Positions 1,418 through 62,753 of a stretch of 64,000 nucleotides of DNA are shown here, piece after piece (position 1 is the first letter of the stretch; the number at the start of each line of letters is the position of its first letter). Under the pieces are notes generated by a model. That model did not search any database. It was not told the DNA's origin and was given only the letters and a program-made list of their open reading frames with translations. The stretch spans positions 3,299-67,298 of the forward strand of contig CAKPKR010000006.1 in NCBI GenBank assembly GCA_934167465.1, written 5' to 3'. A program made the position numbers and the translations under genes. This stretch comes from an uncultured Bacilli bacterium. Lineage in GTDB: Bacteria > Bacillota_I > Bacilli_A > RF39 > UBA660.

Positions 1418-1990
1418 CTAGATAATTATTTTTTCTATTCTTTTTAAATTTAAATGTCTTATATCATTTAAATCTTCTGAATAACGTACTATAATCATTA
1501 CAGTATTTTCATATATATATATTTGAATTGGTAATACATCCCTAGTTTTTTTCAAACCTTTACTATTATATTCAATTGTTATTGATGCATTATTGTTAAT
1601 TGCATTTTGAATTATGCTTATTTTTCCTTTTTCTTCATTACTTATATTTTTGGTTTCATCAACTAATCTGCAATAATTACTTATTTTATATTTTATTTCT
1701 TCTAAGTCTCTTTTATCATTATCTGATAATTTATCTATTAACAAATTAACTTTATCTATATCATTCTTATTAAATAAAATTGAGGGGATTTCTACTTTTG
1801 ATTGTAGCCTATACCCTCCATTTTGTCCCATAATATTTTCTAGATATATTCCTTCTTTTTCAAGTTCTTCTTTATATTGTCTCACAGTTCTAGGCGTAAC
1901 TTCTAACATTTCAGCTAACTTTTTACAATTATAAATTTTTCCTGAAGATAAGATATCCAACATTTTAATATTTTTTGAAATCTTTGACAT
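1418..1990 (-). CDS. HTH-WYL domain transcriptional regulator
   Basis: N-terminal HTH (LAEMLEVTPRTVRQYKEELEKEGI) and C-terminal WYL-like segment (VMIIVRYSEDLNDIRHLNLKRIEKI). Clear paralogue of 31369..31965. Confidence 0.7.
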   Translation of the reverse strand: MSKISKNIKMLDILSSGKIYNCKKLAEMLEVTPRTVRQYKEELEKEGIYLENIMGQNGGYRLQSKVEIPSILFNKNDIDKVNLLIDKLSDNDKRDLEEIKYKISNYCRLVDETKNISNEEKGKISIIQNAINNNASITIEYNSKGLKKTRDVLPIQIYIYENTVMIIVRYSEDLNDIRHLNLKRIEKIII

Positions 1991-2094
1991 GAATTTCTCC
2001 TCTTTTAGTTAAACCTAATTTTATTGTTCCAAAAAAATATTATCATATAGAAATATCTTTGTAAATATATTTAAAAACATCTCAATGAGATGTT

Positions 2095-2853
2095 TTAAGC
2101 AATTTTTACAATATTTAAATATGCACTGGTATCTGAAGCAGGTGATATTGTTGCAGCATCTGTTGCTTCTATTGTTAATCCGATTTCATCACCAGCATTA
2201 AATGCATTTATTGTACTACCAACAAAATCAGTGTCAACATTGGCCGTAACATTCTTACTTATTGCTGTACTACCAATAGGTGTTTCTTTTTGTTTAACAT
2301 GTATAGTAACATCAGTATTTGTGCTAGCACTTCCAGAGAAGTAATAATCCACTTTATAAGTACCATCAGTAGGAATTGTTAGTTTATTTTGAGTATTTAA
2401 TGTTATTCCATTCGAAGGTCCATTACTTCCAAGTGGTATATCTTGGGCTATATTTGCTTCTAAAGTTATATTATTTTCAGTAGTATCATATTTACGACCA
2501 TATGTATTAGTTGGAGAAGCAGCCGCTGGTCCCGTTGGTCCTTGTGGTCCTGCTGGTCCTGCTAACCCTTGTACTCCTTGTTGACCTTGTGGTCCTGCTG
2601 GACCTGTTGGTCCTTGTGGTCCTTGAGGTCCTGTTGGTCCCGCTGGAATTCTAAAATTTAAAATTGTATTTTGATTAGTTCCTGAATTTGTTACAGAAGC
2701 ATTTGTTCCAGGCGCACCTGTTGTAGTAGTTCCAACTGTAATTGTAGCTGGTCCTTGTGGTCCTGTTGGTCCAATTACAACTAATTTCTCTTTGCATTTT
2801 TTTCCTTCAGCTAAAATTTTTTCAATTTTTCGAGAATATTTTTCATTATTCAT
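2095..2853 (-). CDS. collagen-like triple-helix repeat protein with BclA-like C-terminal globular domain
   Basis: GXY repeats ([38 protein letters not shown]) form a locally G+C-rich block. They are followed by a beta-rich C-terminal domain of about 135 aa. GGAGG RBS present. Confidence 0.8.
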
Positions 2854-4362: not shown

Positions 4363-4418
4363 TTTTTCACTCTTTTCTAAATCATTGTAATTATATCAAA
4401 AATATATAGGTCTAACAA

Positions 4419-5177
4419 TTATATTGTTTTTTCTTTTTCCATAGTTATATGGTCAATTAAAAATCCCTTAGTTGGTTTATCTGATATCATTTCATAGCAC
4501 AAATTCATACATTCATCATTATCAGTTATTCCTTTATAATCAATATATTTTTGTCTATTAAATATTAATGTCAATGTTGATTCAATTCTCTCTATTATAT
4601 CATCATAATTGATATCATTGAAAAGATATATTGTAAGTAAATTTAACATATAGCAATCAATTCCATCAAAAGTATCTTTAACATCATAATATTTTTTCAT
4701 TGTTGAACTTATTTGATCAAAATTGTAATTTTCTATTTTAACATTAACAGAATCACATAAATATGCTTTATTTCCATCGGTAATAATGTTTTTTACATTT
4801 AAATCTGCATATATACAATTTTGATTTCTTAAATTAATTATTTCTTCTTTTAAATTCAATAACAAATTATGCTTTTCTTCATCGGTCATTATATCTTTCA
4901 TTACACAAATGGGATAAAATTTTTTCATGTATTTCATTGAAAATCCTATAACATCATTATCTACTTTAACTAACTTGTCAGGTTTAATTAAAACACCTGT
5001 TTTTAGTTTATTTATCAATTTGATTTTATTTATATCAACTTGATCAGAATCATAATATTTTTTTATTAAAATTTCTCTATTGTCAGAAATATAAGTATAT
5101 ATTTCAGATTCATAACCTTCAGTTAATAAGTTTTTGTTTTTATCAAATTCACTTTTATTTAATTCTAAATATTCCAT
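4419..5177 (-). CDS. protein kinase-like fold protein (atypical catalytic motifs)
   Basis: GYESEIYTY..ILIKKYY (Gly-loop/VAIK-like) and IYADLNVKNIITDGNKAYLCDS (HRDLxxxN / DFG-like region with substitutions). Confidence 0.45.
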   Translation of the reverse strand: MEYLELNKSEFDKNKNLLTEGYESEIYTYISDNREILIKKYYDSDQVDINKIKLINKLKTGVLIKPDKLVKVDNDVIGFSMKYMKKFYPICVMKDIMTDEEKHNLLLNLKEEIINLRNQNCIYADLNVKNIITDGNKAYLCDSVNVKIENYNFDQISSTMKKYYDVKDTFDGIDCYMLNLLTIYLFNDINYDDIIERIESTLTLIFNRQKYIDYKGITDNDECMNLCYEMISDKPTKGFLIDHITMEKEKTI

Positions 5178-16274: not shown

Positions 16275-16303
16275 ATTATAACAGAAAAAAAGATATTTTG
16301 CAA
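16275..16303 (-). promoter_or_regulatory. sigmaA-type promoter TTGCAA-17-TATAAT for gene 14849..16249
   Basis: Read on the minus strand. The -35 lies in the loop of the upstream terminator hairpin. Confidence 0.55.
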
Positions 16304-16309
16304 TATCTT
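16284..16309 (-). terminator. intrinsic terminator ending the non-coding unit
   Basis: Minus strand AAGATATT-GCAA-AATATCTT followed by TTTTTCT. Confidence 0.55.
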
Positions 16310-16895
16310 AAAACAATGGCGATTAATATAGTTAACTTTATGTCTTAGGTCAAGTAGAATTTCTCTAGTTTTTACTTATCGTTACCAATAAGCGGTTCCC
16401 CTTTGAAAAAACCAATATACCGTTACCAAATATATGACTTGATTACCACTTAGTACATACTGCAATCCTATATTAGCACTCTAGGAATTTTCTTCAACAA
16501 CAATTTATTATTAATTCTTTTTTGCAAACATAGTTTCATAAAGCAATAATATTATTATATTGGCCAAAACAATAATATCTGTCATTAATCCCCTATATTC
16601 ACTCAAGACAAGCTACGCTACTCGTAAGTGATCCCCACATAGTAGGTTTAATCCTAAATCGTCACAAGTCCATCAACTTTCGTGTATAGGCTTATAACAA
16701 GTTTAGGTCTCCACGAATACTGGGTCGATTGCGTATGCCATTACGGTCGCCCAACATTCTATCTTCCAGCACTCACCCTACACTGGGCGTATAAAGCAAG
16801 CACCACAAGCTTCACAGATGTGCTCTTTAATGGATTTTTAGCCCCATCTTCATAATAAATTTAATTGACTAGAATAATGTGCCATCAATTTATAT
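16284..16895 (-). ncRNA. candidate large structured non-coding RNA (about 610 nt, class unassigned)
   Basis: The unit runs from its own promoter to its own terminator with stops in all six frames. The core 16590-16860 is markedly G+C richer than its surroundings. Several helices have G-U pairs only on the minus-strand transcript. Confidence 0.5.
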
Positions 16896-16900
16896 ACAAA

Positions 16901-16929
16901 ATAATAGCAAATATTAGAATTATTGTCAA
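16901..16929 (-). promoter_or_regulatory. sigmaA-type promoter TTGACA-17-TATTAT driving the non-coding unit
   Basis: Read on the minus strand immediately after the tkt terminator hairpin (16963-16982). Confidence 0.55.
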
Positions 16930-23824: not shown

Positions 23825-23873
23825 AACATCACCTTTTTCATTATATCATTTAATTGTGAAAAAAAAAAGAAAT

Positions 23874-29149: not shown

Positions 29150-29716
29150 TTAATTAATTCCAATAATATAGTAAAAATATGGTGCATTTCCTGATGCAGA
29201 AAATGTAATACTATTACTACCTTTTGGAAGATTTAGTCGATATCCAATACCATAAGTAAATGAACCATAATCATTACCACTATTAAATATAGAATTTTTA
29301 AGTGGTACCCACGAATTTGTTTGCTTGATATATCCATTCTTATCACTAGAAAAGGCTAATGCAACTTTATATGATTTTGAAGTAGTAAAATTAAAAGTAT
29401 AATCACCAACCCAATTATTACCTGATACAATAATAGCAACCTCAGATATATTTGCACTTGCACTTACACCTATTATAAGTTATCCTTTTACTACTGCTGT
29501 TTTTCCATTCAATATATCATTTGCAGTTGCATCGCCTGAACTTTTTATTTTATAAATATCATTTAAAACTTCATTTACAGTCATACTTGTTCCATCACTT
29601 ACATTATATACAACATCACTTGCTTTATATGTGACCGCTGCATATAACGTTCCACTTATACATATAATCATTGTAATTATTACTAAAAATATTCTGCTTT
29701 TCATTATTTTTTTCAT
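29150..29716 (-). pseudogene. decayed member of the conserved-N-terminus secreted protein family (in-frame TAA at 29480-29482)
   Basis: The 78-aa ORF continues in the same frame for about 110 further codons after one TAA, down to the stop at 29150-29152. The N-terminus is paralogous to 46710..47534 and 60274..60897. Confidence 0.7.
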
Positions 29717-29739: not shown

Positions 29740-29771
29740 ATCATACCATCCCCCACAGACGATTTTATCAA
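29740..29771 (-). promoter_or_regulatory. degenerate copy of the family promoter (TTGATA-20-TATGAT) with an interrupted G tract
   Basis: Aligns with 47557-47587 and 60922-60952. The tract reads GTGGGGGATGG on the minus strand. Confidence 0.45.
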
Positions 29772-43822: not shown

Positions 43823-43991
43823 TAGTTGCACCTCCTTAAGTTTTATTCCGTAAAAATCCCTTACGTAATTACAGTAAGGGACCAAAGATCTTCATTATAA
43901 AGTCCTCGGTAGGTAATTAAGCTTTGTTTTGCTCCTACTGTCTACGGTACATATTTTTTTCACGAACAATCTAATTATAGCACATTTTTAA
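43823..43991 (-). promoter_or_regulatory. probable L10 leader (autoregulatory 5' UTR)
   Basis: 169-nt G+C-enriched untranslated stretch in the position of the Firmicute rplJ leader. Structure not verified. Confidence 0.4.
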
Positions 43992-46709: not shown

Positions 46710-47534
46710 TTATGAAAGTTTTGATTTAGGAATTGTTATTACTGGACGGATGCCTAATGTATTATATTTAACTTCAGAATCAGATAAAGTACCATGGTAA
46801 TCAATTCTCATAACAGTATTATTAGATCTAACAAATGGCGTTGAAGTCCAATAACCATATGTTGCTATTGATTCAGAAACATTACATCCATAAGAAGTGC
46901 AACTATTTGTATAATCAAACAACCAAGCATATCTACTTGTTCCTTTTCCACTAGCAGTTTGTGTTTCACTATTACTATCCAAATAAAAACCAGAAACTTG
47001 ATGAATATATTTTTCGTTTTCGGTTATGATTGCAATTTCTTTATCTGTTATTAATCTTGGTATATTTTTCCAGTTTGAAACACTAACAAGTTTATCTACT
47101 TCCACCTTTAAATTACTTTCTTCATACGATACATTTTTATTATCATTATTCCAAGCAATCATAGCAGTTGTGTTATGATCTAATATCATATTCACCGTTG
47201 AGGAATCCGAAGAATCATTAAATATATACCATTTCATACATCCAACTTTATTTTCATTTTTACTATTATCTTCAACGTAATCTTCACATATTTCTCCACT
47301 TACTGGATTATAATATATTACTGTTCCATTTTTATAAAAATAATTATAACCTTTTTTATTAATTTTATTATATAATTCATTTAAAGCATCATTTACATTC
47401 ATACTACTTCCATCACTTGCATTATATACTACATCTGTTGCTTTATATGTTGTTGCAGCATATACACTTATACTAGTAACTATAATAGTTGTAATTATTA
47501 TTAAAAATATTCTACTTTTTATTATTTTTTTCAT
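46710..47534 (-). CDS. secreted protein, conserved-N-terminus family, C-terminal YW(T/L)S...G(I/V)RPVI-type domain
   Basis: Signal peptide MKKIIKSRIFLIIITTIIVTSISVYA, then the shared module TYKATDVVYNASDGSSMNVNDALNELY, then a unique 215-aa C-terminus. Confidence 0.8.
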   Translation of the reverse strand: MKKIIKSRIFLIIITTIIVTSISVYAATTYKATDVVYNASDGSSMNVNDALNELYNKINKKGYNYFYKNGTVIYYNPVSGEICEDYVEDNSKNENKVGCMKWYIFNDSSDSSTVNMILDHNTTAMIAWNNDNKNVSYEESNLKVEVDKLVSVSNWKNIPRLITDKEIAIITENEKYIHQVSGFYLDSNSETQTASGKGTSRYAWLFDYTNSCTSYGCNVSESIATYGYWTSTPFVRSNNTVMRIDYHGTLSDSEVKYNTLGIRPVITIPKSKLS

Positions 47535-47556
47535 TTATAACACCTATCCTACTTAG

Positions 47557-47587
47557 ATTATACCCCCCCCCCAGACGTAAAAGTCAA
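47557..47587 (-). promoter_or_regulatory. family promoter TTGACT-19-TATAAT with G10 tract in the spacer
   Basis: Minus strand TTGACTtttacgtctGGGGGGGGGGTATAAT, read directly. Confidence 0.6.
47563..47572. repeat. homopolymeric C10 (G10 on coding strand)
   Basis: Counted in the sequence. Confidence 0.95.
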
Positions 47588-60273: not shown

Positions 60274-60897
60274 CTATTTTTTCATATATACTTCATATAT
60301 ATTAACAGTTTTAGAATAAGCTTCTAATACTACATAAAATTCACCTGATAAATATGGAACTGATAATTCAATTAAATAATGACCATTATCTAATTTTTTT
60401 GATTGACTACTTCCTATGCATAACGACGTTGTATAACCATAATCAGTTCTTTGTAATGACATTGAATCTGGAGTTGTCATTGTACCTATACTTATATTTT
60501 GATTATCGACTTCAAAATATATTTTACTATAATCAGTTAAATTAACCTTTTTTGATGTTGTTAAATTAGAACTATAGCTTCCACCGGGAGCTACAAATGT
60601 TAAATGATCAGAATTAAGTGTTAATGTTGAGTATTGTGATTGAAATCCTTTTCTCCAACCACCTGTAATATCAGAATATACATTACCTGCTTTATATAAA
60701 TAATACTTAGTTTCATCTTCTATCTTTTTATTATATAACTCATTTAAAGCATCATTTACATTCATACTCGTTCCATCACTGGCATTATATATTACATCAC
60801 TTGCTTTATATGTTGTTATGGCATACACTCCTATACTTGTAAACATTATAGCTGTTAATATAAAAATAAATATTCTACTTTTCATTATTTTTTTCAT
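60274..60897 (-). CDS. secreted protein, conserved-N-terminus family, beta-sandwich-like unique C-terminus
   Basis: MKKIMKSRIFIFILTAIMFTSIGVYA + TYKASDVIYNASDGTSMNVNDALNELY, then a unique 150-aa domain. Confidence 0.8.
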   Translation of the reverse strand: MKKIMKSRIFIFILTAIMFTSIGVYAITTYKASDVIYNASDGTSMNVNDALNELYNKKIEDETKYYLYKAGNVYSDITGGWRKGFQSQYSTLTLNSDHLTFVAPGGSYSSNLTTSKKVNLTDYSKIYFEVDNQNISIGTMTTPDSMSLQRTDYGYTTSLCIGSSQSKKLDNGHYLIELSVPYLSGEFYVVLEAYSKTVNIYEVYMKK

Positions 60898-60921
60898 TAT
60901 AAATCCCTACTTTCTAACAAT

Positions 60922-60952
60922 ATCATACCCCCCCCCCAGACGTAAAAGTCAA
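60922..60952 (-). promoter_or_regulatory. family promoter TTGACT-19-TATGAT with G10 tract in the spacer
   Basis: Minus strand TTGACTtttacgtctGGGGGGGGGGTATGAT, read directly. Confidence 0.6.
60928..60937. repeat. homopolymeric C10 (G10 on coding strand)
   Basis: Counted in the sequence. Confidence 0.95.
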
Positions 60953-61019
60953 GCAGAAATTTTGTTCGTTTTTTATTTTCGCAAATTAATATAGAAAAAA
61001 ATTAGTATTTCTACTAATT

Positions 61020-62753
61020 TTATCTGATCTTTATATGTATTTCTCTTAATTGTTGTTCAGTTAGCTCACTAGGTGACCCCATCATATTATCAGCACCACT
61101 AACACTAGTTGGGAACGCTTGAACTTCTCTTAAATTTGGTTCATCCTTAAGTAACATTATAATTCTATCAATTCCAGGAGCCATACCTGCATGTGGTGGT
61201 GCCCCGAATTGAAAAGCTGTATATAAAGATTTAAATCTTTCTTTAACAGTATCTTCACTATATCCAGCAATTTCAAAAGCTTTTTTCATAATATTAATAT
61301 CATGATTTCTAACAGCCCCAGACGCCATTTCATTACCATTACATACAAAATCGTATTGATATGCTTTAATATCTTCAATATTTTCATTATTTAAGGCATC
61401 TAAACCACCTTGAGGCATACTAAATGGATTGTGACCAAAATCATATTTTCCTTCTTCATTTAATTCAAACATAGGAAAATCATTTATAATACAAAATTCA
61501 AATTTATTTTTATCAATTAAATCTAATTTTCTACCTAGTTCAGTTCTAATTAATCCAGCTTGTTTGCTAGCTATTAATTCATTCTTATCAGCTATAAAGA
61601 ATAAAACACTGCCAACTTTTAAACCTGCTTTATTAATTAAATTTTGTTTGTCTTCATCAGTTAAAAATTTATCAATAGGTCCTTTAAAAGACATATCATC
61701 CATTACAGTAATATAACCAATACCTGGCATATCAATTGATTTAGCATAATCAACTAATTCATTAAACCAAGAATTGGATTTATCAGCAATATTATCAACC
61801 TTAATTCCTCTTACAACTGCACCTCTAAATGGTTTAAAATCAGATGATTCAAAAACATTGCTAATATCAATTATTTCCAAAGGATTTCTTAAATCTGGCT
61901 TATCAGTTCCATATTTTAACAAAGATTCTTTGTAAGGAATTCTTCTAAATGGTCTTTCAGAAACTTCTCGATTACTAAAATTTGTAAAAGTATCATAAAA
62001 GATTTCTTCACCTATTTTATAAACATCTTCTTCAGTTGCAAAACTCATTTCAAAATCCAGTTGATAAAATTCTAAAGTTCTATCACTTCTACAATCTTCA
62101 TCTCTAAAACAAGGTGCGATTTGATAGTATTTATCAAATCCACTAACCATTAATAATTGCTTATAAATTTGAGGTGCTTGAGGTAAAGCATAAAATTTAC
62201 CTTTAAAATTTCTTGAAGGAATAACAAAATCCCTTGCTCCTTCTGGAGAAGAAGCAGAAATAATTGGAGTTTGAACTTCAGTAAATCCTAAAGAATTCAT
62301 TTTATTTCTTAAGTAATTTAATACTTTAGATCTAAAAACAATATTTTCATGAACTTTTTTATTTCTTAAATCTAAATATCTATATTTTAATCTTAAATCA
62401 TCATTTACTTCATGTGAAGTTTTTATTTCAAATGGTAAAGTAGCTGCTTTACTAATTAAATTTAATTCAGAAACTAATAATTCAATAGTACCAGTTTCAA
62501 TATTATTATTGTAATCTTCCTCATTTCTTTTTCTAACTACACCTTTAACAGTAATAGTAGATTCTTTAGAAATGTCTTTAAACATTTCATCATTATTACT
62601 TACCAATTGAATAGTACCAAATTCATCTCTTAAATCCAAAAATAATACACCACCATGGTCTCTTATGTTTTCTACCCAACCAGATAATTTAATTTCTTTT
62701 GAAACATCAGCTTCACTTACTTTTCCACAATAAGTATCTCTATATATATTCAT
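61020..62753 (-). CDS. aspS: aspartate--tRNA ligase (bacterial type)
   Basis: 577 aa with an OB-fold N-terminus, FRDEDCRSDR (motif 2 region) and GAPPHAGMAPGIDR (motif 3). Confidence 0.96.
   Translation of the reverse strand: MNIYRDTYCGKVSEADVSKEIKLSGWVENIRDHGGVLFLDLRDEFGTIQLVSNNDEMFKDISKESTITVKGVVRKRNEEDYNNNIETGTIELLVSELNLISKAATLPFEIKTSHEVNDDLRLKYRYLDLRNKKVHENIVFRSKVLNYLRNKMNSLGFTEVQTPIISASSPEGARDFVIPSRNFKGKFYALPQAPQIYKQLLMVSGFDKYYQIAPCFRDEDCRSDRTLEFYQLDFEMSFATEEDVYKIGEEIFYDTFTNFSNREVSERPFRRIPYKESLLKYGTDKPDLRNPLEIIDISNVFESSDFKPFRGAVVRGIKVDNIADKSNSWFNELVDYAKSIDMPGIGYITVMDDMSFKGPIDKFLTDEDKQNLINKAGLKVGSVLFFIADKNELIASKQAGLIRTELGRKLDLIDKNKFEFCIINDFPMFELNEEGKYDFGHNPFSMPQGGLDALNNENIEDIKAYQYDFVCNGNEMASGAVRNHDINIMKKAFEIAGYSEDTVKERFKSLYTAFQFGAPPHAGMAPGIDRIIMLLKDEPNLREVQAFPTSVSGADNMMGSPSELTEQQLREIHIKIR

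Follow-up and report, generated by a model that had tools for sequence, protein, structure and literature searches.

We find that the run of ten G residues on the minus strand at 60928..60937 of the window, the 64,000-nucleotide stretch of DNA analyzed here, is best explained by slipped-strand phase variation of a promoter spacer, a reading to which we assign a probability of roughly 75%. In the mechanism we propose, the G10 tract would be the hypermutable part of the spacer in a sigma-A-type promoter whose gene encodes a small protein, secreted or located at the surface. [quoted passage not shown] The same cassette heads dozens of paralogs that have in common a signal peptide and a 30-residue module, followed by unrelated lectin-like C-terminal domains. 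Each copy would switch alone, so that a variable repertoire of proteins would be displayed in stochastic combinations. The switch mechanism as such is known and its instance in this protein family is new; our literature searches yielded no account of the family, nor did they yield one of Clostridia-like gut bacteria that switch a promoter spacer by poly-G.

The cassette core and its spacer

The core of the cassette, which we refer to as member C, occupies 60952..60922 on the minus strand, where the sequence reads gcTTGACTtttacgtctGGGGGGGGGGTATGATattg. It consists of a -35 hexamer, TTGACT (60947..60952), a fixed 9-nt spacer segment, tttACGTCT (60938..60946), the G10 homopolymer GGGGGGGGGG, identified in a run scan and forming the variable-length part of the spacer, and a -10 hexamer, TATGAT (60922..60927); the hexamers and the fixed segment were read directly from the sequence. 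The spacer is thus 19 nt long. The start codon of gene C follows the -10 hexamer after 24 nt, a stretch that contains a ribosome-binding site, AGGGA (60904..60908, minus strand), located 6 nt before the ATG. On the other side of the core, an alignment of cassettes delineates a conserved A/T-rich block, ACGAACAAAATTTCTGC (60953..60969, minus strand), which may be an UP-like element.

A second copy of the core, member B, lies 13,365 nt away at 47557..47587 on the minus strand and reads TTGACT tttacgtct G10 TATAAT, with its G tract at 47563..47572. The two 31-nt cores differ in a single base, which is in the -10 hexamer (TATAAT in B, TATGAT in C). This confirms, on the minus strand, the initial annotation, which had described two members about 13 kb apart with a 19-nt spacer, a common -35 hexamer, 9-nt segment and G10 tract, and different -10 hexamers. 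Outside the 31-nt core, B and C are not identical: ACGAACAAAATTTCTGC is present in C and absent from B, and their 5'UTRs differ.

The two tracts are the only runs of eight or more G or C residues in the 64-kb window, against an expectation of 0.02 from shuffled sequences, and the 15-mer TTGACTTTTACGTCT has exact copies in the window at members B and C only. A chance homopolymer is ruled out by this low expectation together with the cassette context in which G runs are found in related loci (see below). A switch of the coding frame is ruled out as well, the tract being intergenic and separated from the downstream ATG by the -10 hexamer and a further 24 nt, as is a known RNA element or riboswitch at the site, for which Rfam has no match at gathering score overlapping 60900-61000. 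A standard promoter scan, which considers spacers of 16-18 nt only, does not report the cassette.

Pairs of the form TTGAY-N-TAnnAT peak in the window solely at a spacer of 17 nt, where 16 are observed against 5.1 expected and many lie just upstream of genes; the other spacings from 13 to 22 nt are at background. With the fixed segment of 9 nt, a G8 tract gives a spacer of 17 nt, G9 one of 18 nt and G10 one of 19 nt. Since the organism's promoters strongly prefer 17 nt, G10, which is the state of the window and also the commonest one, would be weak or off and G8 would be active; G9 might perhaps be on as well. [quoted passage not shown]

The surroundings are those of a low-GC genome, with 25.7% G+C in the window and nearly all long open reading frames on the minus strand. 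The host makes peptidoglycan (murF, ddl and femX) and is an uncultured, walled Gram-positive bacterium of the human gut; a related contig carries SpoIIIAH. Elsewhere in the window, Rfam identifies a full-length OLE (ornate large extremophilic) RNA at 16300-16901 on the minus strand (RF01071, 398 bits), which is unusual in a bacterium from human-gut metagenomes and has a promoter-like site, TTGACA-17-TATTAT, just upstream at 16929. It also identifies a ribosomal protein L10 leader at 43842-43965 on the minus strand (RF00557), in the expected secE-nusG-rplKA-rplJL context. The longest A/T homopolymer of the window is a run of ten A residues on the plus strand at 23859-23868 (T10 on the minus strand), located in a short gap between two minus-strand open reading frames.

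The genes behind the cassette and their family

Gene C (60897..60274, minus strand) encodes a protein of 207 residues with a predicted signal peptide, formed by MKKIMKSR, a hydrophobic stretch and VYA, a conserved 30-residue module and a C-terminal domain of the beta-sandwich type. Gene B (47534..46710, minus strand) encodes 274 residues, of which the N-terminal 58 are as in gene C and the remainder forms another C-terminal domain. The first approximately 58 residues are common to the two proteins, which are unrelated beyond this point, so that the initial view of two proteins with different C-terminal domains is borne out by the sequences of their genes. The common part opens with a basic n-region, followed by hydrophobic residues, VYA and the motif TTYKA.DV.YNASDG.SMNVNDALNELYNK; the predicted signal peptides end in ...FTSIGVYA/ITT in gene C and in ...VTSISVYA/ATT in gene B. 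No lipobox cysteine is present in either gene, and the IISC found in the hydrophobic region of a few paralogs is not general.

Comparison of the gene C protein with Pfam, NCBIfam and PHROGs yielded nothing above the family cut-offs; its best Pfam score was 14.3 bits, to Laminin_G_2 (cut-off 22.9). The sub-threshold matches were to Laminin_G/CBM families for gene C and, weakly, to Lcl_C/DUF6273 for gene B. An AlphaFold (AF2) model of the 207-residue protein, of moderate confidence (pLDDT 66), predicts an N-terminal helix, a hairpin, a further helix and a beta sandwich. Foldseek relates this predicted sandwich to Eph ligand-binding domains and to jelly rolls of the CBM6/29/86 families, with low TM-scores, and we regard a CBM/Eph-like fold of gene C as a lead rather than a result.

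Gene C looks like a separate, monocistronic transcription unit, because a terminator-like hairpin followed by a T7 run marks the end of aspS upstream (60995..61021, minus strand; dG -8.9 kcal/mol, z -3.2) and the tRNA-Asn and tRNA-Glu genes downstream have a promoter-like site of their own (TTGCAT-17-TATAAT). The hairpin would insulate gene C from upstream transcription. Gene B is located upstream of secE-nusG in the window. On a contig from one Hadza sample (L030), a member-B-identical gene is followed not by secE-nusG but by a gene for a 270-residue protein of the sigma-70 family (regions 2, 3 and 4; 1531-2343, plus strand), an arrangement that represents either a rearrangement or a second copy.

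A database search with the 207-residue protein returned 118 clusters, and for most of them the match is confined to its N-terminal 28-38%. With a profile of the N-terminal module, we retrieved 1977 clusters (at 50% identity) with E<=1e-3 from 1.84 billion representatives, 370 of them with E<=1e-10. Judged by sequence, this module defines a large, unannotated multigene family. Each member combines a predicted signal peptide and the conserved 30-residue module with an unrelated C-terminal domain; among the latter are ALK_LTK_GRD, BclA_C, H_lectin, DUF4183, DUF6273 and Lcl_C, and the C-terminal domains are globular, of the beta-sandwich, GRD, BclA_C or H-lectin types. The proteins of the family are probably surface-exposed.

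The sequences of close relatives all come from gut metagenome assemblies, Hadza samples among them. The same core precedes every close family member retrieved, in 28 distinct flank pairs, which substantiates the earlier proposal of a conserved regulatory cassette. Its consensus is CTTGAy-NNNN-ACGyCT-Gn-TAtrAT, followed after about 24 nt by ATGAAAAAAAT..., and a ribosome-binding site, (A)AGTAGGA, is likewise conserved in the family. The best-conserved positions across the 28 flank pairs are CTTGA (at least 96%) and T1, A2, A5 and T6 of the -10 hexamer (96-100%). The ACGyCT block is conserved to 93-100% in the paralog cassettes, and the four nucleotides before it vary (TTTT, AAAA or AAAC). Upstream of the core, 21 of the 28 cassettes have the block ACGAACAAAATTTCT; the other seven, including member B, have unrelated upstream sequence and retain the core. 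That the -35 and -10 hexamers are conserved even next to an unrelated upstream flank fits a promoter. In roughly 200 kb of related loci, all G runs of six or more residues but one fall into the cassette context.

A scan of GTDB for the cassette returned one further candidate (L005), besides 16 chance matches in high-GC or unrelated genomes. This promoter, TTGACA aacacgtct G10 TATAAT, lies at 4386-4420 on the plus strand of contig CAZLNI010000055.1 and is identical to the cassette in architecture, with 9 nt followed by G10 and with the ACGTCT block, and likewise lies upstream of a secreted protein. It is a single sequence and differs in its 115-nt leader, in the downstream gene, which encodes an unrelated 517-residue protein without the N-terminus of the family, and in the genome to which it belongs. 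The contig has 36% GC and is labelled Muribaculaceae; its gene content looks Bacillota-like.

The conservation of the ACGyCT block next to the tract exceeds what a passive spacer should show, and such a spacer does not account for the sharp mode of tract length at G10 either; this hints at an additional factor, which may act at the cassette. In one form of this idea, the cassette would be a family-specific promoter read by a dedicated factor (an alternative sigma, or else a protein that activates or represses) recognizing ACGyCT-Gn, the CGAAC block or both, and tract length would tune the binding of this factor and not just the distance between the hexamers, in a manner resembling the opc or the CRP-modulated tprE/G/J promoters. 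The idea draws on the conservation of ACGyCT, including its presence in the unrelated L005 promoter, on the upstream block of the 21 cassettes, on the non-canonical 19-nt spacer that results from the modal tract length, on the precedent of factor-dependent poly-G/C promoters (PMC7864442) and on the sigma-70-family gene adjoining gene B in L030. We nevertheless consider it unlikely, since the best-conserved positions are those of canonical -35 and -10 hexamers, the upstream block is missing from seven of the 28 cassettes, the distance from GAAC to CGTC is, in our reading of the sequence, 21 nt and thus unlike that of ECF promoters, and no candidate gene for the factor is consistently linked. 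For the same 21-nt spacing, and for the absence of the CGAAC block from the seven cassettes, an ECF-sigma promoter of the type GAAC...CGTC is not favoured.

More distant members of the family, from anaerobic digesters and rumen (L074-L089; N-terminus 33-49% identical), have ordinary promoters and no poly-G; the protein family would therefore be the older of the two, with the switch added to it in one lineage. These distant genes often lie directly after genes ending in ...GNGYAKITY, of the glycine-rich-domain type, which suggests tandem arrays. In tblastn searches of 50,697 phage records, the N-terminal module had no match below E=0.6; IMG/VR contained no relative of the family and the cassette pattern was absent from viral contigs. 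A phage or prophage origin is thus unsupported by these searches, and the resemblance to phage proteins is limited to the GRD-type C-terminal domains of some paralogs.

Length variation of the tract

The gut metagenome assemblies contain 60 complete tracts, with lengths of G6 (two), G8 (one), G9 (nine), G10 (43), G11 (three), G12 (one) and G13 (one), lengths that are read from the consensus of assembled short-read metagenomes, with several contigs at 2-6x coverage and long G runs being error-prone. The tract is therefore not of fixed length in population data, a finding that would have counted against the initial annotation: it ranges from 6 to 13 residues and differs between otherwise identical sequences. 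At the member C locus, recognized by an identical protein, other samples have G10 five times and G11 once (L026), and an ortholog of this locus with 84% amino-acid identity (L002) has G9, preceded by TTGACA aaaacgtct. At the member B locus, other samples have G10 five times and G9 three times. Among the paralogs, one locus has G9, G10, G10, G12 and G13, a second has G8 in one case and G10 in another, and a third has G9, G10 and G11; one further locus has G10 in all eight samples.

The clearest cases come from two contigs (L031, 2477 nt; L032, 2210 nt) that match the window with zero mismatches and have as their sole difference one G fewer at member B. Three independent assemblies agree on G9 at this locus. 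As a reference, none of 22 A/T homopolymers of 7-8 nt changed in the compared stretches of near-identical contigs.

Copies vary independently of each other. Three adjacent paralogs have tracts of 10, 8 and 9 residues on one contig (L036) versus 9, 10 and 10 on another (L037), and sample ERZ4561110 combines G9 at locus B (L031) with G10 at locus C (L022), compared to G10 at both in the window. The independent switching put forward in the initial annotation thus finds support at the level of DNA, where adjacent paralogs vary separately; a corresponding effect on transcription would be expected from the 17-nt spacer preference and from the precedents discussed below. Three hallmarks of a contingency locus are present at 60928..60937: the G10 tract is uninterrupted and, at a threshold of about 8 nt or more, long enough to slip; at the sequence level it lies between the -35 and -10 hexamers, where it would set their spacing; and its length is polymorphic with flanks unchanged.

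The window contains an internal control for these uninterrupted tracts in the form of member A, a decayed copy found by sequence search at 29771..29740 on the minus strand. Its core reads TTGATA aaatcgtct GTGGGGGATGG TATGAT, with an interrupted tract, and is followed by a truncated remnant of a family gene, which the list of open reading frames places at 29716..29480 (minus strand, 78 residues) and whose intact relatives are P0029 and P0069. The tract of member A is identical in ten of ten contigs from ten samples, several of them at only 2.5-2.9x coverage, and no contig breaks there. Because its tract is interrupted, member A is a locked copy.

At least 11 contigs break in or beside uninterrupted tracts, among them three at the member C locus (L001, L023, L100) that begin immediately 3' of the tract. 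Contigs are known to end at poly-G for technical reasons, and we take the breaks as suggestive but ambiguous with respect to length heterogeneity; some of the calls that deviate by one residue and some of the breaks could be technical. Two unusual alleles were seen in addition, an interrupted tract, GGGGGTGGGGGG, in L044 (about 40-85) and a G6 tract in L063 (about 2460-2500) that results in a 15-nt spacer; both could be errors or represent states that are locked.

The sharp mode at G10 (72% of the 60 tracts) would also fit a selected, fixed length. Under this interpretation, G10 would be a promoter or operator element, for instance one that acts as a rigid block of G:C pairs or that forms a binding site with ACGyCT, expression would be conventional, whether regulated or constitutive, and the length differences would be sequencing or assembly errors. 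The locus with G10 in all eight samples, the low coverage (2-6x) of several deviant contigs, the conserved ACGyCT block and the technical nature of contig ends at poly-G are all in agreement with this. Yet the deviations are not just of one residue, as consensus sequences with both flanks intact include G6, G8, G12 and G13, and the G9 of member B recurs in three independent assemblies. Further, the ortholog with 84% identity retains the tract as G9, the 19-nt spacer of the supposed selected length is 2 nt off the organism's own optimum, and an uninterrupted G10 is intrinsically prone to slippage (PMC11868660). A fixed element is thus quite unlikely to be the explanation.

Differences between near-identical strains other than those in tract length are concentrated in the 25-nt patch that separates the tract from the ATG, where they correspond to the types found in other paralogs: 12 of 13 differences in L035, five of six in L024 and seven of seven in L026 fall into this patch. 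In the window, the clustered differences map to 47535-47559 and 60901-60927, in strains that are otherwise about 99.5-100% identical. These differences in the -10 hexamer and the 5'UTR reflect either conversion of one cassette by another or chimeric assembly at the repeat. They raise the question whether the conserved 5' module (promoter, 5'UTR and 170 nt of coding sequence) could serve mainly as a homology handle for gene conversion or shuffling between paralogs, with poly-G as a by-product or a recombination hotspot, which would also be in agreement with the 80-86% DNA identity of the paralog 5' regions. We judge this to be very improbable as the main explanation. Two of the three patches are found at the end of a contig or close to it and could be chimeras that arose when the repeat was assembled, and pure length changes in otherwise identical sequences are left unexplained; moreover, a homology handle is compatible with slippage and not exclusive of it.

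Elements of these alternatives could also act together. The cassette would then be a two-layer system of variation in a human-gut commensal of the Bacillota, in which G10 and ACGyCT form an element that is read by a factor and coordinates the paralogs in a poised-off or mutually exclusive manner, and in which the 5' region is in addition a handle for gene conversion that reshuffles promoter-proximal patches and C-terminal domains. We consider such a system conceivable, if rather doubtful. Phase variation of the spacer by slippage remains the reading that we prefer.

Related switches and significance

[quoted passage not shown] As in M. hyorhinis vlp, M. arthritidis maa2 and M. mycoides vmm, the genes described here belong to a multigene family in which promoter and signal sequence are conserved and the surface domains diverge. 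The tract in the vlp spacer is poly-A, whereas that in the cassette is poly-G. Unlike the Vlp proteins, those of genes B and C are not lipoproteins, as they have no lipobox cysteine, and the family is without C-terminal tandem repeats that vary in number. The host also differs, being a walled, very AT-rich Gram-positive gut bacterium, and there is no sequence homology between the two systems. The likeness is in the location of the homopolymer, between -35 and -10, where slippage switches each vlp gene independently (PMC2268961). [quoted passage not shown] A tract beside a -10 hexamer need not switch, since the T-tract next to the -10 hexamer of M. agalactiae vpma has been shown not to do so (PMC2268961).

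In T. pallidum, several paralogous genes for surface proteins have poly-G tracts of 7-12 residues in their promoters, with most molecules at one modal length (PMC7864442). The tract of tp0126 separates the -35 from the -10 hexamer, with an optimum of transcription at a spacing of 17 nt; activity of the tprL promoter is seen with G8, whereas with G10 it is near background (PMC7864442). This is in line with the prediction that G8 is on and G10 weak or off in the cassette. The cassette resembles tp0126, tprE/G/J, tprF/I and tprL in placing poly-G in promoters of paralogous genes. In the tpr promoters, unlike in the cassette, the tract directly precedes the transcription start and does not occupy a clean -35/-10 spacer, and these promoters are modulated by CRP. 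T. pallidum is, in addition, a spirochaete, and the proteins in question are of the outer-membrane porin type and belong to unrelated families.

In Neisseria meningitidis, the poly-G tract in the porA spacer and the poly-C tract of opc set the level of expression via the spacing of the hexamers (PMC7864442). These are single genes of a Gram-negative host, in contrast to the family-wide cassette described here, and the opc tract overlaps the -35 region.

Phase variation in gut commensals has so far been described mostly for invertible promoters or methylation. The poly-G tracts pose a practical problem, as they fragment short-read assemblies. Since tract length would give the state of the switch directly, existing and future metagenomes, especially PCR-free or HiFi ones, could be used to follow, in each host and through time, which genes of the family are switched on in vivo. 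For the bacterium, dozens of independently switchable, lectin-like secreted proteins could serve the evasion of IgA, the evasion of phages, or bet-hedging between glycan niches.
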